DNA from: Planctomycetota bacterium
GTDB taxonomy: Bacteria > Planctomycetota > PLA2 > JAEUHO01
Direction: 5' to 3'
Assembly: GCA_965222115.1 (NCBI GenBank)
Contig: CBDCTJ010000007.1
Span: forward strand, 2,112,001 to 2,176,000
DNA length: 64,000 nucleotides
The notes beneath the pieces were generated by a model. It ran no database searches, was not told the DNA's origin, and saw only the letters and a list, made by a program, of their open reading frames with translations. Positions 2-13,361 of the stretch are shown piece by piece. Position 1 is the first letter of the stretch, and each line of letters begins with the position of its first letter. A program made the position numbers and the translations under genes.

Positions 2-1645
2 GTTACGCCCCACGGCGATCGCGTTACGTCGTCCGGCGCCATTTTGGGCGGACGTGATCGACCGGCGCTCGGCCTGGTTGGACGTACCGCCGAGTTGCGC
101 CAACTTCATGATGAAGCCGAACGTCTGACGATCTCAGTGTCGCAGGCCCAAGATGCCATGCGCACGGCGGGCGAAGCGGTGCGTGCGAGCGAAGAACAGA
201 TTCGACGCATTCGCAAGGAACTCGTCGAAAAGAGCGAGGATCGCACGCGACGTGGCGAGGCGCTCACGCGCGTCGAACGTGAGCAAAAACAAGTCGTCGA
301 TGCCATGAAGTTGATCGACCTCGAGGTCGATGAGTTCACATCGATGCGCACGGAAACGCTCGCACGCATTGAGACCGTGACGGCCGAAGTTCAGGCTCAC
401 GAACGCCGTCGTGAGGCGCTGGAAGAGCGCGCCGAGGAAGCCGCGCGCGGCTACGTCGCGATGGAAGCGTCGCGCAAAGAAGCGGCGGAACGTCGCATGC
501 AAATGATGTTGGCCCTTGCCGAGGCGAAAGCGAAGGCCGAGAGCGCCGAACGTCGCGTGACGCGTGCTCGTGACGAAGCCGCAGCACTGGATGCCCGCGC
601 CGAAGAGGCCGCTGCAGAATCAAAGGCGCTTGGGGACCGGTTGTCGCGCGCCGAGATCACCGTTACTGAAGCGAACGCCGCGGCTGAGCAGGGCGAGGCG
701 CTCAAATCGGGTAAAGGAACCGAGTTGCTCGAGGCCCGCAACGTGCTTGCCGCGTGTGACGAGGGGGCGACCGCGGCCGACAAGCGACGCCGCGAAGTCC
801 AGCGTCTACACGATACGTTGCGCGAAGAACTCGCGGCATGTCGTCTGCGCGAAGGAGAATTCCGCACGCGCCTCGATGCGCTCCTCGAACAGGTCACACA
901 AGACACCGGCGTAGATCTTGAGCGCGTGGAGGCCGAGGCGGAAGCCACTGAAGATCTCGACCTCGAAGCCATCGACGCCGAAGTGGAGACCATGCGTCGC
1001 AAACTCGATTCCATCGGTAACGTCAATCTCAACGCCATGGCCGAGCTCGAAGAAGTCGAAACCCATGTGCGCGAGCTTCAGACACAAGAGAAGGATCTAA
1101 TCGAAGCGCGCGTGGGGCTCGAGACGGCCATCAAAGAACTTGACGACATATCGCGCAAGCGTTTCGAGAAAACGTTCTTCGAAGTTCGTGAGAATTTCCG
1201 AACCACGTTCCGGCGGCTCTTTGGTGGTGGTCGTGCCGATGTCCTGCTGGAAGACGCCTCAGACGTTTTGGAGTCGGGCATTGAGATCGTGGCGCGCCCA
1301 CCCGGCAAGGAACAACGCACGATTAGCCTCTTGAGTGGTGGGGAGCGCACACTCACAGCCACGGCACTGTTGTTCGCCGTATTCCAGGCAAAGCCCAGCC
1401 CATTCGCCATTCTCGACGAGGTCGACGCCGCGCTCGACGAAGCCAATGTGCGTCGCTTGATTTCGTTGTTGCGCGAGTTCACCAATCGCACGCAGTTCGT
1501 GGTGATCACTCACGCTAAGTCCACGATGGAAGCTGCGGACTTGCTTTACGGCGTCACCATGGAAGAACCCGGCGTAAGTCGCCGCGTCGCCGTGCGCCTC
1601 ACCGATTGCAATAGCGCCACCCCGGAGCCTGCGGCGGCAGGTTGA
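2..1645 (+). CDS. smc: Chromosome segregation protein SMC, C-terminal part (5' truncated by window)
   Basis: Frame open from position 2 (VTPHGDRVTSSGAILGG, end of hinge), long coiled coil, GNVNLNAMAE, signature LSGGER, Walker B/D-loop ILDEVDAALDEAN, and QFVVITH. Confidence 0.95.
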   Translation, partial: VTPHGDRVTSSGAILGGRDRPALGLVGRTAELRQLHDEAERLTISVSQAQDAMRTAGEAVRASEEQIRRIRKELVEKSEDRTRRGEALTRVEREQKQVVDAMKLIDLEVDEFTSMRTETLARIETVTAEVQAHERRREALEERAEEAARGYVAMEASRKEAAERRMQMMLALAEAKAKAESAERRVTRARDEAAALDARAEEAAAESKALGDRLSRAEITVTEANAAAEQGEALKSGKGTELLEARNVLAACDEGATAADKRRREVQRLHDTLREELAACRLREGEFRTRLDALLEQVTQDTGVDLERVEAEAEATEDLDLEAIDAEVETMRRKLDSIGNVNLNAMAELEEVETHVRELQTQEKDLIEARVGLETAIKELDDISRKRFEKTFFEVRENFRTTFRRLFGGGRADVLLEDASDVLESGIEIVARPPGKEQRTISLLSGGERTLTATALLFAVFQAKPSPFAILDEVDAALDEANVRRLISLLREFTNRTQFVVITHAKSTMEAADLLYGVTMEEPGVSRRVAVRLTDCNSATPEPAAAG

Positions 1646-1713
1646 GTTGAGGCGTGAGGTAAACGCACAATTCGTGCCGGGAACAAGGGAGGGAGTTCCG
1701 CTACCATTGAGGC

Positions 1714-2652
1714 GTGATTGACCGACCGGAACAGCAGAACGGCGATGGGCGCGAGAAGGACGAGGATACATTTCGCCTTGCGCCGGATGACACACCGCCA
1801 CCGGTACCTGCACGATCAATAGAGGCGGCGCCTGCTGCCCGGATTCTAGCACCCGCGATCGATGTGGATGTGGTGGGGGGTGAGCCTGAGATTGATGACC
1901 GCACCCTGGCAGAGAAACAGGGCAAAGAACGCGCAAGCGCACTCGACGTCTTGCCGAAGCCCGATGGCTGGCCTGGCGAAAGTCTGGTGTTCCCGTTTCG
2001 AAAGCCAGGGCCCGCCCTGCTTGGGGCTCTCACAGTTGTAATGATACTCTTGGATGTGCTGGGTGCATTCGAGGGTGTGCGCTTCTTATCGTGGTTGTTC
2101 AAAGTGCTGGCGTATGCATTTGTGCTGGGGACGCAACTCGCTGTGATTTCGTCGTCCGCCTCGGGCGACGACGTCCCCCGTGTATCCAATCGCGCGTCGG
2201 AAAAGACCGACGCATCGTCAATGCGCCGGTACGGATTCTTTATTGGGTGCTGCGTGATTCCCTTGATTGCCTTTGCCTATCTCATGCAGCGCTTTGATTG
2301 GATGCTATGGAGCGGTTTGGCAGCCGTTGTATTCCTTTGTCTTTACCAATCGGCGTGGGCATTGGGAGCCGCGCTGAACGACCATCGCATCAAGTATCCG
2401 TGGCACGCAATTCCTATGATCTTCAAGGCACCCCTCACTTGCATCGTTGGCGCGCTCGGACTTGTTGGTTGCCTCGTAGCAGAATGGGTTCATTTGTCGG
2501 TCAATGGGAACGGCCTCGGTCAAGTGCTCGCGGCGAGTATTCCGCTACGTTTCGTAGCGGCGTATCTGCTTGTGTTCTCCGCCCGCTGGTTGGGTGTGCT
2601 GGGGCGTTCGTGGGCGGCCGGAACGATGGCTGCCGGCTATGGGGAGGCGTGA
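1714..2652 (+). CDS. Hypothetical multi-pass membrane protein
   Basis: 312-aa ORF with a low-complexity N-terminus then several hydrophobic helices; TACCAT lies 6 nt before the GTG start. Confidence 0.8.
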   Translation: MIDRPEQQNGDGREKDEDTFRLAPDDTPPPVPARSIEAAPAARILAPAIDVDVVGGEPEIDDRTLAEKQGKERASALDVLPKPDGWPGESLVFPFRKPGPALLGALTVVMILLDVLGAFEGVRFLSWLFKVLAYAFVLGTQLAVISSSASGDDVPRVSNRASEKTDASSMRRYGFFIGCCVIPLIAFAYLMQRFDWMLWSGLAAVVFLCLYQSAWALGAALNDHRIKYPWHAIPMIFKAPLTCIVGALGLVGCLVAEWVHLSVNGNGLGQVLAASIPLRFVAAYLLVFSARWLGVLGRSWAAGTMAAGYGEA

Positions 2653-2657
2653 GGTCC

Positions 2658-2999
2658 CTATTCGGTTGTCACCTTCTCCAGCAAGATGAACCACGAGCCA
2701 CCGAGGTTGGTTACGGAGACCGCGTCACTGGTGCGCACGATGCGAAACCCCTGTTCGGCCATGGTGTCCAGCGCACTTTGAAGTAGGACGCCGCCGGGCG
2801 GGGCGCCGTCGTACCAAGCCTTGGCCGTGGAGCCGATGCCGGCCACGCTGATGTGCCGCATTTCAACCGTCTGTTTCTTCGAATCGGCATGGCTGGCTCG
2901 TGGACCAATGAAATAGAGGCCCGCAAATACAACGGCAGCCAGTGCGAAGACCCACGTGCTGTTGCGGCGTGCAGAATGGCGAATCTGAGCTGGAGACAT
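2658..2999 (-). CDS. Small secreted hypothetical protein
   Basis: MSPAQIRHSARRNSTWVFALAAVVFAGLYFIG...SHA signal-like N-terminus; AAAGGA upstream of the ATG at 2999. Confidence 0.7.
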   Translation of the reverse strand: MSPAQIRHSARRNSTWVFALAAVVFAGLYFIGPRASHADSKKQTVEMRHISVAGIGSTAKAWYDGAPPGGVLLQSALDTMAEQGFRIVRTSDAVSVTNLGGSWFILLEKVTTE

Positions 3000-3114
3000 G
3001 ACGATTCCTTTTGGGCTTGTAGAACTCTTGGCGAGGCGTCGCGTTCGATCCACGTAGGATCACGTACCCGATTGTCGCATACCTACCGCCAAATCCCTCG
3101 GGAGCCATTCGCCC

Positions 3115-3516
3115 ATGTCCGAGTCGCCACACGTCACCATTACGCGCCTGGTTATGCCAGGCCAGGCCAACTTCCACGGCAGCCTCTTTGGCGGCGTGGT
3201 ACTGAGTTTGATGGACGAGGCCGCCGCGGTACTCGCAACGCGTGTTGCCAAAGGCGCGTGCGTAACAGCTCACATCGCCTCGGTCGATTTTCAGGCGCCC
3301 ATTTGGGTGGGCGAGGCGGTCCAAGTGACAGCGCGACTCATCAAGATCGGCAATACGTCCATGCGATTGCGTGTGAGTGCGGTGGGTGAGAACCTGGCGA
3401 CAGGCACGCATCGACAATGTACCGAGGCGGAGTTCGTCATGGTGGCAACCGACAAAGAAGGCCGTCCGCGGCCGGTTCCTAAACTCGAGACCCACGACGA
3501 ACGCAATGGCGGGTAA
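3115..3516 (+). CDS. Acyl-CoA thioesterase (hotdog fold, YciA-like)
   Basis: VMPGQANFHGSLFGGVVLSLMDEAA, VTA...VDFQAPI, GNTSM and FVMVATDKEGRPRPVP motifs. Confidence 0.92.
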   Translation: MSESPHVTITRLVMPGQANFHGSLFGGVVLSLMDEAAAVLATRVAKGACVTAHIASVDFQAPIWVGEAVQVTARLIKIGNTSMRLRVSAVGENLATGTHRQCTEAEFVMVATDKEGRPRPVPKLETHDERNGG

Positions 3517-3561
3517 GATTGGGGTGCATCCAAACGGCTCCACGGCTAATTGGGAGGTCCT

Positions 3562-3792
3562 ATGGTTGACGCAAAGAAGGTCAAGGCCTGGCTCGACGAG
3601 AAAGTCGGTACCGTGCGCTGCACGCTCTGCAGGAGCACCGACATCAACATCAGCCGCGACCTGCTCACGCTACCGCTCGACGATCCCAATCCTCAGAAGG
3701 GGAAGACCACGCCGGTCGTGGTTGTACGCCTCCGATGTGGCCACTGCGCACACATCATGCTGCTCCACGCACGAAGCATAGGCGTGTTTTAG
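3562..3792 (+). CDS. Small zinc-ribbon protein
   Basis: GGAGG RBS before ATG 3562; CTLC...CGHC pairs in about 76 aa. Confidence 0.8.
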   Translation: MVDAKKVKAWLDEKVGTVRCTLCRSTDINISRDLLTLPLDDPNPQKGKTTPVVVVRLRCGHCAHIMLLHARSIGVF

Positions 3793-3802
3793 GCTCAGAC
3801 GG

Positions 3803-4336
3803 GTGTCGAATCACTCACGTCGTCTATTCCACTACAGTGAAGATCCGAGCATCCGGCGTTTTGTGCCCCATGTCCCAAAGACGAATCCAAATCAGCTACC
3901 CGCGGTATGGGCGATAGACGAAACGCATGCGCCGCTCTATTGGTTTCCTCGCGATTGTCCACGTGGCACGGTGTGGGGGCGTGACCAACGCGAGGTCTCA
4001 CTGTTGCAGTCATTGTTTCACACCTCGTCCCACAGACTTCATGTTACCGAGTCAACCTGGCGCGATCGTATCTGGCGTTGTGAGCTGTATCGATACTCGT
4101 TTTCGGCCGAGACGTTTCTCCCCTGGCCAGATGCCTTTGGCACCTACGTATCTCATTCGACGGTTTCGCCGTTACATGTAGAGCCAATCCATGCACTGAT
4201 TCAACGCCATGAGGACGCAGGAATCGAACTTCGATTCGTCAACAACGTTTGGCCGTTTTGGGACGCAGTCGTCGCAAGCGGGCTTCCTTTTAGTGGTGTA
4301 CGACTCTCGCTCGCAAAACGTCGTGCGGCCGACTAA
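3803..4336 (+). CDS. Conserved hypothetical protein (DUF6886-like)
   Basis: LFHYSEDPSIRRFVP, VWAID, YWFPRDCPR and FSGVRL motifs; family name recalled from memory. Confidence 0.7.
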   Translation: MSNHSRRLFHYSEDPSIRRFVPHVPKTNPNQLPAVWAIDETHAPLYWFPRDCPRGTVWGRDQREVSLLQSLFHTSSHRLHVTESTWRDRIWRCELYRYSFSAETFLPWPDAFGTYVSHSTVSPLHVEPIHALIQRHEDAGIELRFVNNVWPFWDAVVASGLPFSGVRLSLAKRRAAD

Positions 4337-5334
4337 CAAACAAATAGAAGATTTTCCGGTTCACGCAGTCCAGCCGCGCGCGTCACGGCGCGAATGTCCT
4401 CGCGCCCTTGGCCGCCAAGCGTGGAAACGGAGAAGTGGCTCGAGTTTAGCTCTGACGGTGCAAAGGCCTTGAGTGTGTGACCGTGAATCGTGGCGCCTAC
4501 GCGGCTTTCGCGGTAGGCGTAGATGTTCGCGATATTGATGCCAGCGGTCGTAAACGCGTTGCACCACTTCTTGCCTTCTCGGCCATAGCCGATGACGTCA
4601 ATGGGACGCGTGCACGCACGCAGCATTGGAATGAGGTGCTTGAGTTTTAGATCGCGAAACTGGCGCTGGGCGTAACGTCCGTCGAGGCGCGAATGACGCG
4701 CGTCATGGTCCCGCCAATCGAGCAAGACGTCGGGGAGTTTTTGGAATCGGGCGCCATGGCCGGCGGCTCGAAGAAAGAACTCGTAGTCTTCCGGGAAAGG
4801 ACTATCGACGTAACCGCCAAGCGCATCGGCAAGCGTTCGGCGAAATGCGCATGCGGGATTGGGCATGACACACTCAATGAAGCGGCTGGCCATAATGGCG
4901 TCGTGGGTGTGGAGCCCATTGATCCACCCTTCGTAGGCTTCCATACCTTCGCTCAATCGATCCCGCGGTATGTAGCGAATGCCATGCGCAAAGTAATCAA
5001 TGTCGGGTGACGCGTCTGCGGCGTGAACCAGTGCTTCAACGCGGCTCGGATGGGCAACGTCATCGCCGTCCATCCGAATGAGCAGGTCCCCCTGCGCGCG
5101 TACGAGCAGCCGATTCGCCGTAGCGATAATGTCCTTGTGCTCCCCGGAATCGATCGATATTCGTGCATCGTGAGCCGCATACGAATTGGCAATCGCCAAC
5201 GACTCATCCGTTGATCCATCGTCTTGAATCAGCAATTCAAACTCGGGGTGGGTCTGAGCTAGGATGCTCTCAATGGCTGCCCGCAAGAAGGGCGCTTCGT
5301 TGTAGACGGGCATCATGACCGACACGCGCGTCAT
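4333..5334 (-). CDS. GT2 family glycosyltransferase, QTGAL/B3GNTL1-like; last gene of the queA-queG operon
   Basis: VSVMMPVYNE, QDDGSTD, RMDGDD (DxD), FPEDY and a C-terminal Rossmann-like VIGYGREGKK segment; ATG at 5334 overlaps the queG stop (ATGA). Confidence 0.9.
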   Translation of the reverse strand: MTRVSVMMPVYNEAPFLRAAIESILAQTHPEFELLIQDDGSTDESLAIANSYAAHDARISIDSGEHKDIIATANRLLVRAQGDLLIRMDGDDVAHPSRVEALVHAADASPDIDYFAHGIRYIPRDRLSEGMEAYEGWINGLHTHDAIMASRFIECVMPNPACAFRRTLADALGGYVDSPFPEDYEFFLRAAGHGARFQKLPDVLLDWRDHDARHSRLDGRYAQRQFRDLKLKHLIPMLRACTRPIDVIGYGREGKKWCNAFTTAGINIANIYAYRESRVGATIHGHTLKAFAPSELNSSHFSVSTLGGQGREDIRAVTRAAGLREPENLLFVC

Positions 5335-6470
5335 TCGTGAGTCCCCGTAGAAAGAACAGCCGCGGCTTCTTTGCGCACCCACTCATGCGAATCACCTGCG
5401 ACGAGTTCATTCGCTTTGCCATGCGCCGAGTTCGGTGCGAGATGCTCCAACGCCCACAACGCGTGCGTTCGTACGAGCGCTTCGGGATCCTTCAGGCATG
5501 CCTCCAACGCAGGCACGCAGTCCATACAGTCGATATTGCGCGCGACCACGGCGGCGTTTCTCAGGAGCCCCGCGCGTCCTGGCCGTTGGAGCGGCGTGCC
5601 CCGAAAGCGTTCGTCAAACTCGGCGTCGGTGCGCATGGAAAGCACATCCGCGAGATCGACGTGCATTCCTACACCCCGATCCGGGGCAAATTCGGGCCAC
5701 GCAGGCGGTGCATCGAACCGATTGAATGGACACACGTCTTGGCACACATCGCAACCGAAGATCCATGCGCCCATGGCGGTTCGGAGTGAACGTGGAATGG
5801 GCTCTTGGCTTTCAATCGTGAGATACGAAATGCACTTTCGGGCGTCCAATACATAGGGCTCGGGAAACGCATCGGTGGGGCAGGCCGGGATGCAGTCATT
5901 GCACGTTCCACAATGACCGTCGCTCGGCGTGTTCATCCGCTCAAGTTCGGCTTCCACAATCAGTTCGGCTAAGAAGAACCATGACCCTCGCCGCGGCAGC
6001 AGGAGGCAGGTGTTCTTACCGAAGAATCCAAGTCCGGCTCGGGCTGCAAAAGCGCGTTCTAGGATCGGCGAGTAGTCGCTAGCTACCTTTGTTCGTCCAA
6101 GATTGGCGTTATCTGCGGCGAGTGCAGTCGCAAGCTCGCGCAGGCGCGGAATGATTACGTCGTGGTAATCCAGGCCCCAGGCATAGCGCGCTACGCGACC
6201 GAAGCGCTGCTCATGCTGAAACGCCGGTGCCGGGTGCCAATACGGCACGGCAAAGCAGAGCACACTACCTGCGGTCTTGTGAATCGTCTTTGGCGTCGCG
6301 CGTTGCGGCGGGTCGCGGTCCATATAATGCATGGAGCCCGCAAAGCCGCGTTCACACCATGACTCCAGGCGCACCAACGCGTCGGAAACCGGCTTACCCG
6401 ATGTAACGCCAACCAAGTCAAAGCCGAACGACCGTGCCGTAGCCTTGATGCGGGCTTGAAGATCGTTCAC
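5331..6470 (-). CDS. queG: Epoxyqueuosine reductase
   Basis: ARYAWGLDYH, ERAFAARAGLGFFGKN, GSWFFLAE, Fe-S motifs CGTCNDCIPACPT, CISYLTIE and FGCDVCQDVCPFN, C-terminal HEAT-like repeat. Confidence 0.97.
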   Translation of the reverse strand: MNDLQARIKATARSFGFDLVGVTSGKPVSDALVRLESWCERGFAGSMHYMDRDPPQRATPKTIHKTAGSVLCFAVPYWHPAPAFQHEQRFGRVARYAWGLDYHDVIIPRLRELATALAADNANLGRTKVASDYSPILERAFAARAGLGFFGKNTCLLLPRRGSWFFLAELIVEAELERMNTPSDGHCGTCNDCIPACPTDAFPEPYVLDARKCISYLTIESQEPIPRSLRTAMGAWIFGCDVCQDVCPFNRFDAPPAWPEFAPDRGVGMHVDLADVLSMRTDAEFDERFRGTPLQRPGRAGLLRNAAVVARNIDCMDCVPALEACLKDPEALVRTHALWALEHLAPNSAHGKANELVAGDSHEWVRKEAAAVLSTGTHE

Positions 6471-7525
6471 GCGTCTTCTCGAGCGCGAGACGAGAGCAAC
6501 ATCGCATCGCCATAGGAGTAGAAGCGGTAACGCTCACTGACCGCATGCTTATAGGCGCGCATGATTGTTTCATGTCCGGCGAATGCTGAGACGAGGGCCA
6601 AAAGCGTGGAGCGCGGCAGATGAAAGTTGGTGAATAGCGCATCTACGATATTGAATCGATACCCCGGTTGAATCAGAAGATTCGTTGATTGCTCGCCACG
6701 ATCTATCGTGCCATCGGACTTTGTAGCAGCTTCAAGTGCGCGCACCGTCGTCGTTCCCACTGCAACGATGCGACGCTTCTCCTTGCGAGCCCGTTCTAAC
6801 GCTGTAGCACACGCGTCGCTAATGGAGTAGCGCTCCGTGTGCATATCGTGATCATCCAAATCATCGGTGCGGACGGCGGCAAACGTGCCGCGCCCCACGT
6901 GCAGCGTAACGAACTGAATCTCGATGCCCTTGGCCTGTAGCGCAGCGAAGAGTTCCTGAGTGAAATGCAGACCGGCTGTGGGTGCTGCAATCGCCCCTTC
7001 TGCTTCAGCAAATGTTGTTTGATAGCGCGATTTGTCCATGGGCGCGCGCGCGTCGTTGGCCACGCGCCGTATGTAGGGCGGAAGTGGCATGGATCCGTTC
7101 ATTCTCATGAACTCAGTGAGCGACGTGGTTGCCGGCGTAACGGTCCACTCGCCGCCACCGTGAGACGCCACCAGGACAACGGTATCCTGATCATCAAACC
7201 GAAGTCGATCGCCCGTCTTTAGCCGTTTGCTGCCTCGCAACAAGACGCGCCATGCATCCTCACCCGCATCCGCATCGCGCTCCAAGAACAGGGCATCGAC
7301 GGCGCCTCCGGTCGCGCGGTGAAACGTGACTTTGGCGGGCAAGACGCGCGTGTTGTTGAGCACCAAAACGTCGGATGCATCGAGCCACGTGGGGAGTGCG
7401 CGCACCGTCGAATCGATGAACGCGTCGGAATCAACCACCAGCATGCGCCCGCCATCACGTGTCGGCGCCGGTTCTTGGGCGATGAGCTCCGGTGGCAGGT
7501 CGTAGTCAAGTTCATCGAGTCGCAT
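6467..7525 (-). CDS. queA: S-adenosylmethionine:tRNA ribosyltransferase-isomerase
   Basis: DYDLPPELIAQEP, NNTRVLPA, PLPPYI, YQT, AAPTAGLHFT, TLHVG, AVGTTTVRALE, TNFHLPRSTLL, YRFYSYGDAM. Confidence 0.98.
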   Translation of the reverse strand: MRLDELDYDLPPELIAQEPAPTRDGGRMLVVDSDAFIDSTVRALPTWLDASDVLVLNNTRVLPAKVTFHRATGGAVDALFLERDADAGEDAWRVLLRGSKRLKTGDRLRFDDQDTVVLVASHGGGEWTVTPATTSLTEFMRMNGSMPLPPYIRRVANDARAPMDKSRYQTTFAEAEGAIAAPTAGLHFTQELFAALQAKGIEIQFVTLHVGRGTFAAVRTDDLDDHDMHTERYSISDACATALERARKEKRRIVAVGTTTVRALEAATKSDGTIDRGEQSTNLLIQPGYRFNIVDALFTNFHLPRSTLLALVSAFAGHETIMRAYKHAVSERYRFYSYGDAMLLSSRAREDA

Positions 7526-7605
7526 GGCGGCGAATCAGCGTATCGCCGGGATTGGCAATCATGCCAATTCATAGGAGTCGGGCAGGATTGCGCTAAAACG
7601 TTGCC

Positions 7606-7938
7606 ATGATCATCCAGCGCGAAGTCACCAAGTACTCCATTCAGCTCTTCGGAGGCGCCGACGGAAACGCCGACGTGATTGGGGCTATCTCCCTCAGCAT
7701 TGGGGACGCAGGGGCCGTCCTGCGCTTTGTACGGCAGGAAGTCCCGGTGCCGGTCAATACCATCGTGACGCTTCCAACCGGCAAGAAGCACTACTACGTG
7801 AACTACTCTGAACGACAGCTTGCCATCGTGATCGACGTTCTGCGCAATGAGTCACCGGTTTGGTTCCTCTACAACGAGTCCACGAACGCGGGTTACCTCA
7901 CCGCTCGAGAGGAACCCACGGGCGAGGGTGAGGGCTAG
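7606..7938 (+). CDS. Conserved hypothetical protein
   Basis: 110-aa ORF divergent from queA, with IDVLRNESPVWF and EEPTGEGE motifs. Confidence 0.75.
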   Translation: MIIQREVTKYSIQLFGGADGNADVIGAISLSIGDAGAVLRFVRQEVPVPVNTIVTLPTGKKHYYVNYSERQLAIVIDVLRNESPVWFLYNESTNAGYLTAREEPTGEGEG

Positions 7939-8091
7939 CCCCCTGGTATTCCCCCTGGGGTTGCTGCTAGACTTACACACGCTCATCCTCCGTTGACGGT
8001 CGATATGCGCTTGCGCGTCTCACAAGGAGGCGTAGGGCGCGCAGGTTGATGTCATTCTCCTCCGTGAACGTGTCGGCAGAATGGCCGACGG

Positions 8092-11000
8092 ATGGGCGGC
8101 AAAGGAAACGGAGGGGCCGTGGGTCGTACATTGACTTGGATCGGGATGGTGGCCGCCATAGCGCTCGCGGCATGGCTTGCGTTGTCCATCACGGATGAGC
8201 CTTCGATCTCTGTGGAAGACGACCACGGGGAAGTCGTTGAATACGATGATCAAGGCAATCCGATTCTGTCTGGGGTCGTGGGCCCCGATGGGAAGCCCAT
8301 CAAGCCAAGCAAAAGAGATTCCACGGCTACGGCGGAACCAGAAGACGCGGCACCGCTGCTCGATGGCCAACAGCTACTCACCGGCATCGTGTTGGATGAA
8401 TCGCGCCGCCCCGTAGCGGGTGCCGACATTGTTGCCCACCTGCGCGATGCAAAGGACGTTCACACGAAGAGCGACAGCGAAGGCAAGTTTTCTCTTCCCG
8501 TCACAACACCGAGCGACGTGACCAATCCCTGGTACGCACGTGGCACGGTATACGCGCGCACATCCGACGATCGCGTCGGCTTCAGCTCGTTTCGCCCATC
8601 CTTTCGTTTGCCCGCGCCGGGAATCGATGTGGGGAAGATTGTCGTACGCAAAGGTGCACACATTCGGTGTCGTGTAACACGCGAGGGATCCCCGGTCCCT
8701 GGTGCACGGTATTGGGTTGTGGGGCGACGCCGCGCTGCCATCTATGAAACGGGCGTCGCCGACGACGGTGGCATTGTTACAAGTGCAATCTTTCCGCTTT
8801 CGAGTTATGTCGTCATCGCAGCGTCGCCCGAGAAACCCGACGGGTATACAAGTGCACGCACAATGGGTCACGGTCATAAGCGCATACAGATTCCGATTGC
8901 CAAAGGCGCCGACCTCCCTGAACTCGCACTTGGCGATACGCGTACCCTTCGCGTTCAGGTCGTAGACAAGGCGTCGCGCGCACCGATTCCCGCCGCCAAG
9001 ATTCTGGTTGGCGACGATAGTTCACGCCCGCCGCCCCGTGGCGTCGGCACGTTGCCTCCCATTCCAGACACGCTGACCGGCGCGAACGGCGAGGCCGCGG
9101 TAATTGCCGGCGTACCGGCCGACAAGCGCGTGTACGTCAATGCCGAGGTAGAAGGTTATCCAAAGTCTCGTGGCTACAACGGTCGCGGCATGGCAACGGC
9201 TGAGCCCGGCAACGACGATGTCACCATCGAACTTGCCACCTATCGGGAGGTCGCCTTTCCGATCGGCCCCAGTGATGTCGAGACGCCCGGAGAGGGTGAC
9301 GCGCTAACAGCAGAACGCACGTCGTGGTCGGGCGCTCCGGACCCGGATGAACAACTCGCCGCCAAAGTTGAGGGTACGTATGTCGTGATCAGCGGCCTTC
9401 GTCCCGGCTACGACTACGGCACCGTGAGCACCGCCGATGGTCGCATTGCCAACTTTCATGCTCCTCAGGGCAACGCGAAAGCAGCGCCGCTAAAGTTCGT
9501 TCGTGCCAAACCCATCACGTTGCGGCTCATCTCTGAGAGCGGCGAAGTTATGAAGGGCGAGCAATTGAGTTTGGCGGGGGGCAACGGCCGCAGCTACCAA
9601 CCGCCGGAGATTACCAACGAAAACGGAGAAGTGACCTTTGACAAACTCACGTGGAACCAAGTCGTTGTGCGGCATGTTCCGCGAGGGTCCGACAACTGGT
9701 GGCGCGCGCCAATCGTGGACCGCTTCAAGCGCGCCGATGTAGACGGTGTTCGTGAAATCCGTCTCAAATCGGGCGAGCGCGTCACGATCGATGTGTTGAT
9801 CAATGGTGTTCGCAAGCTGCCCACACGCTATTCGATATCGGTAGGGCGGCGCAGCATTCGAAGTGGCGATGTGGAAGAAGATCCGGGTGCGGCCACGCTA
9901 TCATTTGCCGTGCTCGAAAAGGACTGGAACAAGTCCGGCCCAACGAAGTTTGTGATTGGCGCCGAGGGCTGCCTGCCCAGCACATTAGAACTGGAGCGCG
10001 AGGAGGCAAGCGCAGGCCGCCAACGTGTCGATCTAAAGCTTGCGGGCACCTTCGTGTGCCAGGTGACGCCGCCGGAAGACGAGCGGTATTCACTTGCGCT
10101 GCAGCAATACAATGACGGCACTCAAATCTGGGAGGCCACGCGCGCGTCGGGATGGCAGGCGCCGCGTCCGGCCGACGCTGAACGAGAGAAACACACGCGA
10201 CGATTTGGCGGACTCAAGGCCGGCACCTATCGCGCCATCGATAGTTTCTCCCAGGCAACCAGCGGGTCGATTGTGGTCGTACCGGGTGAGCCCGCGAAGA
10301 CAGTCAAGTTGGATCTTTCGGTGGTGACCACGATTGAAGGGCGTGTAGTGGTGCCCGAGGGCGAAAACGTGCGAACGGCTTCGGTCAAGCGCGTGACAAA
10401 GTCAGGGACGAGTTCGAGCAACACCAATTATTTTCCCGGCAGAAGTTTCCCGTCTCCCGGTCGGTGGCGCGGTGGTTCTCATATCCAGATCCAAGAGGAC
10501 GGCTCGTTCTCGCTGCGTGCCGTGCGGGGCGATCCCGTCACGCTTTCGGTGGATCACGCGTACTTATCACCCGTGAATGGAAAACGTACCTTAAGGACCA
10601 AGGGCGGCGCCCGCGGTATTGAGTTCCGACTTGAAGCCACCGGCTACATCTCCTTTCGCCTTCCCGATGTTGCCGCCGGCGCTGAGTCGGTTGCCAACAA
10701 CGGGCCAACCATGCGTCCCGGGACTTCGATTACTGCTGCGTTGCTCGCCGACGACGGGCCCGGTAAACCCAAGAAGGTCGTTCGTTCGTCGGGCCTCATT
10801 CCCAAGAACGGTGTGTATCGAATCGGAGGCGTTGAGCCGGGCACCTATGAACTTCGCATCGACTCCTCCGGGTTTGCCCGCCGAACCATTGCAGAGGTCA
10901 AACTCGGCGAATCGAGTGTAGATTTGGGCGACATTGCGATGTCGCGCGGTGGAACCATCAAGGTGCGTGTACTACCCGAAGCGGATGGAGACACACCGCC

Positions 11001-11241
11001 GTCCGCATGGATCAACTGCGTTCGAATTGATCCGCCCGACAATCACACGCGCAACGGCGTGTACGGTGCGCAAGGCGTTGCGACCGTTACGGGACTCGGA
11101 CCTGGCACGTGGAAGCTGAGCATCTGGATTCACAACATGTTTGTGCCCGGCGGGAGCCAGAAGCCCGCTCATGTTCGCGAAGTGTCCATTTCCGGTAACG
11201 AGGAAGTCGACATTGAACACCGGATGTCGTCGGGGTCGTGA
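8092..11241 (+). CDS. Large membrane-anchored protein with carboxypeptidase-regulatory-like beta-sandwich repeats
   Basis: N-terminal TM helix; repeated segments such as GIVLDESRRPVAGADI, TKSDSEGKF and GVEPGTYEL. Confidence 0.8.
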   Translation: MGGKGNGGAVGRTLTWIGMVAAIALAAWLALSITDEPSISVEDDHGEVVEYDDQGNPILSGVVGPDGKPIKPSKRDSTATAEPEDAAPLLDGQQLLTGIVLDESRRPVAGADIVAHLRDAKDVHTKSDSEGKFSLPVTTPSDVTNPWYARGTVYARTSDDRVGFSSFRPSFRLPAPGIDVGKIVVRKGAHIRCRVTREGSPVPGARYWVVGRRRAAIYETGVADDGGIVTSAIFPLSSYVVIAASPEKPDGYTSARTMGHGHKRIQIPIAKGADLPELALGDTRTLRVQVVDKASRAPIPAAKILVGDDSSRPPPRGVGTLPPIPDTLTGANGEAAVIAGVPADKRVYVNAEVEGYPKSRGYNGRGMATAEPGNDDVTIELATYREVAFPIGPSDVETPGEGDALTAERTSWSGAPDPDEQLAAKVEGTYVVISGLRPGYDYGTVSTADGRIANFHAPQGNAKAAPLKFVRAKPITLRLISESGEVMKGEQLSLAGGNGRSYQPPEITNENGEVTFDKLTWNQVVVRHVPRGSDNWWRAPIVDRFKRADVDGVREIRLKSGERVTIDVLINGVRKLPTRYSISVGRRSIRSGDVEEDPGAATLSFAVLEKDWNKSGPTKFVIGAEGCLPSTLELEREEASAGRQRVDLKLAGTFVCQVTPPEDERYSLALQQYNDGTQIWEATRASGWQAPRPADAEREKHTRRFGGLKAGTYRAIDSFSQATSGSIVVVPGEPAKTVKLDLSVVTTIEGRVVVPEGENVRTASVKRVTKSGTSSSNTNYFPGRSFPSPGRWRGGSHIQIQEDGSFSLRAVRGDPVTLSVDHAYLSPVNGKRTLRTKGGARGIEFRLEATGYISFRLPDVAAGAESVANNGPTMRPGTSITAALLADDGPGKPKKVVRSSGLIPKNGVYRIGGVEPGTYELRIDSSGFARRTIAEVKLGESSVDLGDIAMSRGGTIKVRVLPEADGDTPPSAWINCVRIDPPDNHTRNGVYGAQGVATVTGLGPGTWKLSIWIHNMFVPGGSQKPAHVREVSISGNEEVDIEHRMSSGS

Positions 11242-13361
11242 GCGCAAGCGCTAGATTCGCCGCCTTGACGATCGGCGCACTCTTTGCATTCGTTCACGTT
11301 GGGTTCAGTCCGTATGCCCGTGGGGATGTGCTCATTCCGAAGAGGGGCAAGCGCATCGAAGGCGCGATCGTCTCGCAAGCGGGCGGTCGCGTTGTCTTCA
11401 ATCGGTACTGGTCACGCAATCCGGGCGTGACGAATCCCGATCATGTGATCACCCTCGCAGCGTCGGCCATCAAGTCGGCCAGGGTGGCGCCCCATCCCCA
11501 CGTGGAGTTCTTTCGCCGGTTGAAAGTGGCCAAATCGGTCGACGACTTGGTTGCACTCGGTGATTATGCGCGCGAACACAAATTGAAAGCTCACGCGAAG
11601 CGCGCTTATGCCACGGCACTTGCCAAGGATGAGTCCAACGCCGCGGCGCTGGAGGGCATCGGCGGCGCGTCCAAATGGAAAACGGAGCGGGAGGGCAATC
11701 CGTGGCTCGACCACTCGCTTGGCGATCTTCGTAGGAAATACGTCACCGTCAGCGACCCCAAAGAACGCGTCGCGCTGGCGGCAACAATCAAAAAGGCCGG
11801 CGGCCAAGAAAAGCTCCCCACGTTAGAGCGCATGCGACGCAGTGCATCGCAGCCCACGGGCTATCACGTCGATCGTCCGCTGTGCGTGAATGCGCCCGAT
11901 CATCCCCATGGCGTGTACACGCTCTATGTGCCCGATACCTACACACCCACCGAAACCTGGCCGCTCATCATTGGCCTTCACGGAGGGGGCGCGGGTGGGA
12001 AGGCGGGCGACGAAGTGGTAGGAAGCGGCGAGTCGGCGATAAACTTCTATCGACGGCACGCAACCGAGCGTGGATTCATTGTGGCATGTCCAGATGCATT
12101 GTCGCGCGGATGGGGAAGCAAGGACAATGAGCAACTTGTTCGGGATGTCATCACGGAATTGACGCTGCTCTACAACGTTGATCTAGACCGCATCTATTTG
12201 ACGGGGCACTCGATGGGGGGCTTTGGCACATGGTCGTTGGGTCCACGCATGGCCGACCTATTCGCGGCGATTTCGCCCATGGCGGGCGCCGGATCGGGGG
12301 TGTCCAAACTCATCGACACCAACACGCCTATTTTCATCTTTCACTCGGCAGACGATTTCATTGATGTAAGCAGCGACCGCGCGGCGGCCAAGCAACTAAA
12401 AGCGTCGTCGCTGGACTTTGTGTATACGGAGTTTCCAAACGCCGGTCACGGATTCCCCGACTCCGTTCAAGTGGAGTTGTTCGACTTTTTCGAACCGCGT
12501 CGCCTCTATCGCAAGCGGCGCAAGAGCGCATGGCCTCGCTCGTCGTTCTTGGGCAAAGTCACCTCAACCGAGTCGCGCTTTCTTGGCGACCCGTTGGCGG
12601 AAACAAAAGCGGATGCGCCCACGCTGAAGTCATTGATGAAGACGTTCTTGCTCGGCGGTGGGTGTTCGGAAGCGGTGGCACACGTGCTACTCGATCGTGC
12701 GTTTGAGGGTACCGGGGCAGCGGTGTCCACGGTGTTGCATGGGAAGAACAACTCCACGTCGGCGCGCGCCAGTGCAGCTCGGTTACTTGGCAAACTTGAG
12801 GAGCCCGGAATCGGGCTACCCACGCTCCGCCGGGTCTTGAAGGAGAAACCCTCACGCGATCTCTCCCACGTCATTCGTGCTACCGCAAAGTCGGTTGCAC
12901 GATTGGAACAGCTACTTCGTGAGAAGGACAGTGACGACGTGGGGCGCGAGCACTCCATGTTGTCGCTCGAGCTCGCCATCGACTATTGGTGCATGTTTTA
13001 CGAATCAAAACTCTCGGGAGCTACGATTGATGCGCCCGACTGGCAGCGCGTCATTCCCGTCATTGCCGACCTTGTTTCGGCGTGGGCTGCGTGTGCACGA
13101 GAAGGCGATTCGCTCAAGATGATCAAGCGCACGGCCTATGAACTGGTGCTTGAGCCCACGCACAAGGTGGCCACGTCTCCGCGGGTGCGCGAGGATCCAT
13201 CGATTGAACGGGCGCAGTTGGCAGCTGCCATGGGGCGGGCCTATGCCCGCGGGGGCGCCACGGACGACGATTGGGCGGATCTCTTCAAGGCTCTTTCCTC
13301 GGACGAGCGGGCCCTAACGGCGGCCAAAGCTGCCCGCGAGCAGGCGCCCTCAGCCCGCTAG
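11238..13361 (+). CDS. Secreted alpha/beta hydrolase (esterase/peptidase) with helical C-terminal region
   Basis: Signal peptide; YTLYVP...[25 protein letters not shown] nucleophile elbow, FHSADD and AGHG. Confidence 0.85.

Follow-up and report, generated by a model that had tools for sequence, protein, structure and literature searches.

A queA-queG-GT2 operon of a Planctomycetota bacterium and a candidate queuosine-tRNA glycosyltransferase from a widespread two-domain family

The window, that is, the whole stretch of DNA analysed here, comprises 64,000 nucleotides (nt) from a Planctomycetota bacterium (assembly GCA_965222115.1, contig CBDCTJ010000007.1, positions 2,112,001-2,176,000, forward strand). 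On its minus strand, queA and queG are followed by a gene for a glycosyltransferase of family GT2, P0001, which is a candidate for the glycosylation of queuosine (Q) in transfer RNA (tRNA). The genes and the parts of P0001 are listed below in window coordinates; invariance refers to A1, a family alignment and profile of 54 sequences.

6467-7525, minus strand: queA (P0003), tRNA preQ1(34) S-adenosylmethionine ribosyltransferase-isomerase, 352 amino acids (aa), first gene of the operon
5331-6470, minus strand: queG (P0002), epoxyqueuosine reductase, 379 aa, GTG start
4333-5334, minus strand: GT2 glycosyltransferase gene (P0001), candidate Q-tRNA glycosyltransferase, 333 aa from ATG, stop codon at 4333-4335
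4621-5334, minus strand: GT-A catalytic domain of P0001, residues 1-238, delimited by structure comparison of the model
5059-5070, minus strand: DxD motif DGDD, residues 89-92, with D89, D91 and D92 invariant in 54/54 A1 sequences
4783-4794, minus strand: PEDY motif, residues 181-184, with E182, D183 and Y184 invariant in A1
4336-4620, minus strand: small Rossmann-like C-terminal domain, residues 239-333, with the GxGxxG motif GYGREG at 4573-4590

The first two genes were identified by curated profiles. QueA exceeds the equivalog cut-offs of NF001140 (416.6 bits, cut-off 324) and of TIGR00113 (358.5 bits, cut-off 267.45, residues 1-346), and matches PF02547 in Pfam (7.5e-120). QueG passes the curated cut-off of TIGR00276 (329.7 bits, cut-off 200) and carries the double 4Fe-4S cluster domain Fer4_16 (PF13484, 3.1e-22), QueG_DUF1730 (PF08331, 1.9e-15) and HEAT repeats. 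P0001 matches PF00535 over residues 5-167 (4e-27). Among the NCBIfam equivalogs, all 23 rows for this protein lie far below their cut-offs, the best being EpsE at 79.8 bits against 450.

On the forward strand, TCAC at 6467-6470 corresponds to coding GTGA, in which the stop codon of queA overlaps the start codon of queG, and TCAT at 5331-5334 corresponds to coding ATGA, in which the stop codon of queG overlaps the start of the GT2 gene. The three genes thus form an operon with translational coupling through 4-nt stop/start overlaps; an initial annotation of this DNA had placed the minus-strand chain and both overlaps correctly. Alignments with homologues begin at residues 1-4 of the ATG form, and the ATGA overlap therefore marks the real start of the GT2 gene. 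A longer form starting at the GTG at 5382 was rejected on the same grounds.

An AlphaFold2 model of P0001, built on 54 relatives, has two domains (predicted local distance difference test score, pLDDT, 96.1; predicted template modelling score, pTM, 0.93). In VIA-align, the GT-A domain superposes on K4CP (PDB entry 2z86; Z 24.8, root-mean-square deviation (rmsd) 2.5, 218 residues aligned over model positions 1 to 238) and on SpsA (1h7l; Z 24.7), and Foldseek returns SpsA at E 2.5e-15 (TMq 0.55). Enzymes of the SpsA/K4CP/TarS type share with residues 1-238 of P0001 the GT-A fold (Z 24-25, rmsd 2.4-2.6) and the DxD and ED motifs; they differ in lacking a Rossmann-like C-terminal domain in this arrangement, in lying in glycan gene clusters and in using glycan or lipid-linked acceptors. 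From general knowledge of GT-A enzymes, we take the DxD motif to be the site of the metal and the nucleoside diphosphate (NDP) sugar. The PEDY motif probably corresponds to the E-D of inverting GT2 enzymes, the candidate region of the catalytic base. Since the DxD and ED motifs are intact and invariant, P0001 looks catalytically competent, as judged from its residues. Further positions invariant across A1 are W137, N139, R87, R98, R189 and G251. Within the DxD motif, P0001 reads DGDD where most relatives have DADD.

The C-terminal domain has a small Rossmann-like fold with a GxGxxG motif, of the CoA_binding, Rex or PglD_N-like kind. A1 profile positions 243-332 match Rex (5zz5, 7.9e-05), VioB (7txp, 8.3e-05) and PerB, and some relatives carry a precomputed match to PF22674 (C2185-like_N). 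Folded alone, the domain reaches a pLDDT of 92.1; its nearest Foldseek rows are the N-terminal domain of VioB (TMq 0.70, E 2.6e-03) and the Rex-family RSP (E 2.8e-03), with Rex at a TMq of about 0.7 and no row reaching E 0.001. The last 95 residues of P0001 therefore resemble the N-terminal domains of PglD, VioB and PerB and the NAD(H) domain of Rex in fold and glycine motif, with the difference that in P0001 this domain sits behind a GT-A domain. A structure search using the whole P0001 model returned no solved structure with both domains together. The domain may serve as a recognition module for the acceptor or for a nucleotide.

P0001 is soluble by hydropathy, with a highest 19-residue Kyte-Doolittle mean of 1.02, below the threshold of 1.6, which 4 of the 54 A1 sequences reach. 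It does not resemble the polyprenyl-phosphate GT2 enzymes of the DPM1, ArnC and GtrB type: C-terminal membrane helices are absent and the Rossmann-like domain takes their place. In A1, the median isoelectric point (pI) is acidic over residues 1-185 (4.99) and basic both over residues 186-239 (10.85), which form the GT-A domain's acceptor side, and from residue 240 to the end (9.76). A basic acceptor side together with a basic C-terminal domain would fit an acceptor that presents nucleic acid.

P0001 belongs to a distinct and widespread family of two-domain GT2-Rossmann proteins. Full-length relatives are numerous, about 335 aa long (322-345 aa) and 30-45% identical. Confirmed relatives were found in at least 558 species genomes in a scan with one genome per species, and the carriers include Planctomycetota, Desulfuromonadales/Geobacteraceae, Desulfovibrio, Myxococcota, Gemmatimonadota, Verrucomicrobiota, Bacteroidota, Chloroflexota, Acidobacteriota, Nitrospirota and others; Geomonas edaphica, Anaeromyxobacter soli and Minicystis rosea are among the carriers in culture. 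Within a sample of 301 genomes from the window's own phylum, 72 have a match at 1e-20, about 40 of them over most of the length. The genome of the window holds one full-length copy, its three other matches being confined to residues 1-102 at most. Phage relatives, hinted at by an Atlas search, were discarded: none of 95 matching phage records covers 80% or more of P0001, and the match is to the GT-A domain only.

Searches among longer proteins gave 491 matches to A1. The 120 that were listed are all generic multi-GT2 proteins that cover 27-77% of the query, and their Pfam lists contain no que or tRNA domain. The sole family-specific fusions are P0245 (631 aa) and P0249 (624 aa), in which an N-terminal class I S-adenosylmethionine (SAM) methyltransferase (PF13649) precedes a complete GT2-Rossmann module. 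In the PDB, the fused methyltransferase comes closest to unnamed SAM-dependent methyltransferases and to a phenazine methyltransferase, and comparison of the P0245 methyltransferase gave no assignment to a family of RNA methyltransferases.

To place the operon in a wider context, we considered 120 loci of the family, 80 sampled across phyla and 40 cut from the phylum sample. The queA and queG genes stand beside the family gene at 1 of the 80 loci across phyla (L005, a Planctomycetota metagenome-assembled genome, MAG) and at 4 of the 40 phylum-sample loci (L085, L086, L088 and L089), all four in the window's own GTDB family, f1. The linked f1 genomes are four of the six f1 genomes with a match, the loci L087 and L123 being without linkage. 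At the linked loci the queA-queG-GT2 order and the tight spacing are kept, with identities of 41-44% for the GT2 protein and 53-59% for QueG. Every linked copy falls within one clade of 26 rows (support 100) in a FastTree phylogeny of 81 of about 240 available sequences, which was midpoint-rooted and built with no outgroup and no animal sequence. Among f1 genomes lacking the GT2 gene, L126 and L128 have queA with no queG within about 6 kb, and the third such locus, L127, spans just 3.9 kb, too little for a judgement. Thus, the three genes behave as a unit. Wherever queA and queG were seen side by side, the GT2 gene followed.

Elsewhere in the family, gene neighbourhoods vary. The largest neighbour cluster common to family loci occurs at 8 of 80 loci. 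At the 120 loci, 102 neighbours lie on the same strand less than 150 nt away, and their Pfam tally is headed by UvrA (6), QueG (3), DUF2288 (3), 4HBT (3) and Dus (2); the top 25 of their 122 Pfam families include no polysaccharide family. The want of polysaccharide context and of conserved neighbours argues that the family gene is not of the envelope-glycan type. UvrA-domain neighbours occur at L011, L018, L026, L032, L053, L072 and similar loci, mostly of Gemmatimonadota type. Among 50 carrier genomes from many phyla, drawn from the 80 loci, queA is present in 47, and the remaining three (3/3) have tgt above cut-off; in the genome of the window, tgt lies about 590 kb from the operon. Four Bacteroidota genomes (G308, G315, G335 and G348, behind L014, L023, L050 and L069) have a second queA-like match, in two pieces, besides a normal queA.

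The closest functional parallel to such a gene product is an animal enzyme, reportedly named QTGAL in the 2023 Cell paper of Zhao et al. P0001 shares with it membership of GT2 (CAZy), a cytoplasmic location, a similar size and a genetic tie to queuosine, which in P0001 runs through the operon; both are inverting because both are GT2 enzymes. In addition, P0001 has the inverting GT-A domain with DxD, the solubility and the lack of a signal anchor that characterise the B3GNTL1 type. It differs in being bacterial and encoded beside de novo Q synthesis. According to published work, QTGAL is B3GNTL1 and transfers beta-galactose from uridine diphosphate (UDP)-galactose onto Q34 of tRNA-Tyr (PMC11755703; bioRxiv 10.64898/2026.06.28.735034), the product being a beta-galactoside on the homoallylic hydroxyl of Q (bioRxiv 10.64898/2026.06.28.735034). 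In the literature consulted, sugar-modified queuosine (galQ, manQ) is described for animals only, its writers were identified in 2023, and a QTGAL orthologue is missing in flies while the gene is present in C. elegans.

Searches connect P0001 to eukaryotic proteins by two routes. The first is the Atlas search, which compares proteins by language-model features. Unfiltered, it returned bacterial GT2 clusters only; with clusters containing PF13641, PF10111, PF13506 or PF13632 excluded, the top cluster among those with a name proved 100% eukaryotic (Bacillariophyta; score 0.98, 197/256 shared features). This diatom cluster is automatically named 'putative UDP-GlcNAc:betaGal beta-1,3-N-acetylglucosaminyltransferase-l...'. 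The name, an earlier one of B3GNTL1, is an automatic label that no alignment supports. Outside the bacteria, the Atlas cluster nearest to P0001 among those with a name is thus B3GNTL1-like by label, a further point of likeness to animal QTGAL.

The second route runs through divergent relatives. A profile of the C-terminal 200 residues (A2) gave 19 matches among longer proteins, none named B3GNTL1, and the divergent relatives P0257-P0259 were among them. Seeded with these three, an exhaustive profile search (A3) found 282 proteins at 1e-30 or better. From the best 150 of these 282 matches, 25 were looked up together with P0245 and P0249, and the only names met with were those of Tetraselmis, Guillardia and MMETSP proteins. 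The resulting subfamily, A5, includes a Tetraselmis striata protein (EukProt), Guillardia theta XP_005839308.1 and MMETSP transcripts, none of which bears the name B3GNTL1. Profile-profile comparison aligns A1 with A5 at a probability of 100 (E 1.1e-65) over 314 columns across both domains; full-length eukaryotic (algal) relatives of P0001 therefore exist. Members of A5 (P0274, P0329, P0278, P0316, P0257 and P0258) have the motifs ME[AS]DD and YxxWQN, and their glycine motif is degenerate. The subfamily mixes eukaryotic algae with Planctomycetota MAG proteins on one side of the tree (support 100), and this mixture hints at transfer between domains of life.

Direct searches for B3GNTL1 itself returned little. 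In the PDB, phmmer and profile searches gave GT-A matches only and no QTGAL entry, and the text of the eLife GT-A survey does not contain B3GntL. The initial annotation had set five peptide strings of P0001 beside putative counterparts in B3GNTL1, pairs that may serve as a lead. All five are present in P0001; on the B3GNTL1 side, WINQ and LYRHH had no match in 438 proteins, and shorter strings were scattered over proteins of bacterial or multi-domain type.

We propose that P0001, as an inverting GT2 of the cytoplasm, adds a sugar to Q34 of tRNA once QueG has acted, a plausible and testable candidate function to which we give an even chance. QueA, QueG and the GT2 would act in sequence, the GT2 using an NDP-sugar as donor for glycosylation of the queuosine-34 cyclopentenediol. 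The acceptor is presumably Q-tRNA; the targets would be one or more tRNAs that bear a GUN anticodon, and the product a beta-glycosyl-Q. The basic region 186-239 and the basic Rossmann-like domain may hold the anticodon loop or its nucleotides. On this proposal P0001 would correspond, in bacteria, to the QTGAL (B3GNTL1) of animals. Queuosine is indicated by two independent lines, namely the conserved, coupled operon and the kinship, at the level of the family, to proteins named after the sole GT2 known to act on Q; neither of them is decisive. A broader reading, in which the whole two-domain family (at least 558 bacterial species genomes and eukaryotic algae) glycosylates Q34, the animal QTGAL is its descendant and the queA-queG-GT2 operon is the clue to its role, is possible but tentative, falling a little on the doubtful side.

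A known system invites comparison. GluQRS (YadB), the one known bacterial decorator of the Q cyclopentenediol, acts on Q34 of tRNA-Asp; it has the fold of a truncated glutamyl-tRNA synthetase and uses ATP and glutamate, and so is not a glycosyltransferase, and its sequence is unrelated to that of P0001. PMC10690763 describes gluQ as bacterial.

Several results weigh against the queuosine proposal: (i) The que linkage is the trait of one clade, it is missing at L087 of that same clade, and, being confined in this way, it may reflect a single historical event. (ii) The tgt gene stands beside the family gene at none of the 120 loci. (iii) The queA gene is present in 289 of 301 phylum-sample genomes whether the GT2 gene is present or not, and its near-universality leaves little weight to the co-occurrence with queA or tgt. 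(iv) The link to B3GNTL1 depends on a cluster name assigned automatically and on an alignment-free score, and pairwise BLASTP between P0001 and the Guillardia protein gives weak matches (5e-07 over 49 residues, 1e-04 over 148). (v) A literature search, with supplements outside its scope, found no report of glycosyl-Q or of a B3GNTL1 homologue from bacteria. (vi) The longer-protein searches found no family fusion to an RNA-binding or que domain. (vii) The branch leading to P0001 is long (1.01 changes per column), and the protein has an unusual composition. (viii) PF02629 (CoA_binding) matches the C-terminal domains of 47 of 91 relatives and misses that of P0001 itself. (ix) The nearest relatives of this domain bind NAD(H), coenzyme A (CoA) or NDP-sugars, which would suit a small nucleotide-bearing acceptor equally well. 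Co-localisation of homologues with que genes, which the initial annotation proposed as a check, holds for five other genomes, all with the same gene order and in one clade, and not for the family at large (1/80, 4/40 and, for tgt, 0/120). The interpretation in that annotation stands as regards the operon, the order shared with those five genomes and a family that is not of the envelope type and has eukaryotic relatives; a family-wide linkage to que genes does not.

Another possibility is that the sugar acceptor of P0001 is, instead of tRNA, a small molecule of the cytoplasm that bears a nucleotide (for instance an NDP-sugar, a dinucleotide cofactor or a CoA-like thiol) or a secondary metabolite, its Rossmann-like domain binding the nucleotide of the acceptor and the que linkage in one planctomycete clade being incidental operon hitch-hiking. 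This would agree with the resemblance of the domain to binders of NAD(H) (Rex), CoA (PF02629) and NDP-sugar nucleotides (VioB, PerB), with the solubility of P0001, with the 114 of 120 loci that have no que neighbour, and with the fusion of P0245 and P0249 to a methyltransferase of a generic small-molecule type. However, no conserved biosynthetic neighbours hint at a metabolite pathway, and the three-gene unit has been kept, its genes overlapping or nearly abutting, while the GT2 proteins diverged to 41-44% identity. The strongly basic acceptor side (median pI 10.85 and 9.76) and the naming of the nearest eukaryotic look-alike cluster after the Q-tRNA galactosyltransferase family also speak for tRNA. 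We regard a small-molecule acceptor as unlikely, though far from negligible.

The same operon could also serve a nucleic-acid acceptor other than finished Q34, such as epoxyqueuosine (oQ) or preQ1 in tRNA or another modified base, or else free queuosine or queuine destined for export or storage. QueA makes oQ and QueG reduces it, the basic acceptor side would suit such substrates too, and the evidence is compatible with several 7-deazaguanine acceptors. Yet the GT2 gene comes last in the gene order, behind queG; the sole characterised enzyme of the look-alike family acts on Q in tRNA; and no transporter or salvage gene is linked, either in the window flanks or among the 102 neighbours. An acceptor of this kind seems improbable.

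Finally, an ordinary envelope-glycan GT2 (for lipopolysaccharide, exopolysaccharide, teichoic-like or S-layer glycans) acting on a lipid-linked sugar and standing behind queG by chance is disfavoured by context, solubility and architecture and is very improbable: the GT-A domain is indeed nearest SpsA, K4CP, heparosan synthase, TarS/TarP and WrtF (Z 22-25; Foldseek E ~1e-15), the top NCBIfam rows are EpsE, TuaG and PgaC, JGI labels relatives 'glycosyltransferase involved in cell wall biosynthesis' and long multi-GT2 proteins match 27-77% of the query, but the NCBIfam scores are far under their cut-offs (79.8 against 450), no polysaccharide gene could be recognised in the flanks of the operon or, by the top-25 Pfam tally, among the 102 close neighbours, the C-terminus is a Rossmann-like domain and neither membrane-spanning nor amphipathic, eukaryotic algae hold full-length relatives, and the genome has a single full-length copy beside three matches that span residues 1-102 at most.

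Two features border the operon directly:

3803-4336, plus strand: DUF6886 gene (8.4e-55), convergent with the GT2 gene, the stop codons of the two overlapping at 4333-4336
7526-7605, no strand assigned: divergent intergenic region upstream of queA, 80 nt, presumed from its position alone to be the promoter region of the operon

The overlap of the DUF6886 and GT2 stop codons leaves no space for a terminator between these genes. Over 3800-8100, no sigma-70-like promoter site was found, nor a terminator on the operon strand, and no Rfam family, riboswitches included, matches 3500-8500 at E up to 1. Ten flanking open reading frames (ORFs) over 44-13361 were scanned with Pfam; five had matches (SMC_N/RecN-like, DUF6886, CarboxypepD_reg and dienelactone hydrolase-like) and five had none. 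Since no match is to a polysaccharide family, the observation in the initial annotation that polysaccharide genes are absent nearby is borne out for these ten ORFs, five of which have no Pfam match at all. The flanks at 44-1645 and 8092-13361, both on the plus strand, encode an SMC_N/RecN-like ATPase, a protein of 1049 aa that carries CarboxypepD_reg repeats and an alpha/beta hydrolase of 707 aa; between these genes lie five smaller ORFs with no Pfam match.

If the queuosine proposal is right, P0001 would be a bacterial counterpart of QTGAL, whose modification has so far been described from animals only, and a new modification would join the repertoire of bacterial tRNA. A function would be found for a large GT2 family that is unannotated and at present carries the label 'cell wall biosynthesis', and the result would bear on the origin of the eukaryotic QTGAL. 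The idea lends itself to direct testing, since some carriers are in culture (Geomonas edaphica, Anaeromyxobacter soli and Minicystis rosea), and such organisms would offer a tractable microbial system for the effects of Q glycosylation on the decoding of NAU and NAC codons and on tRNA stability.

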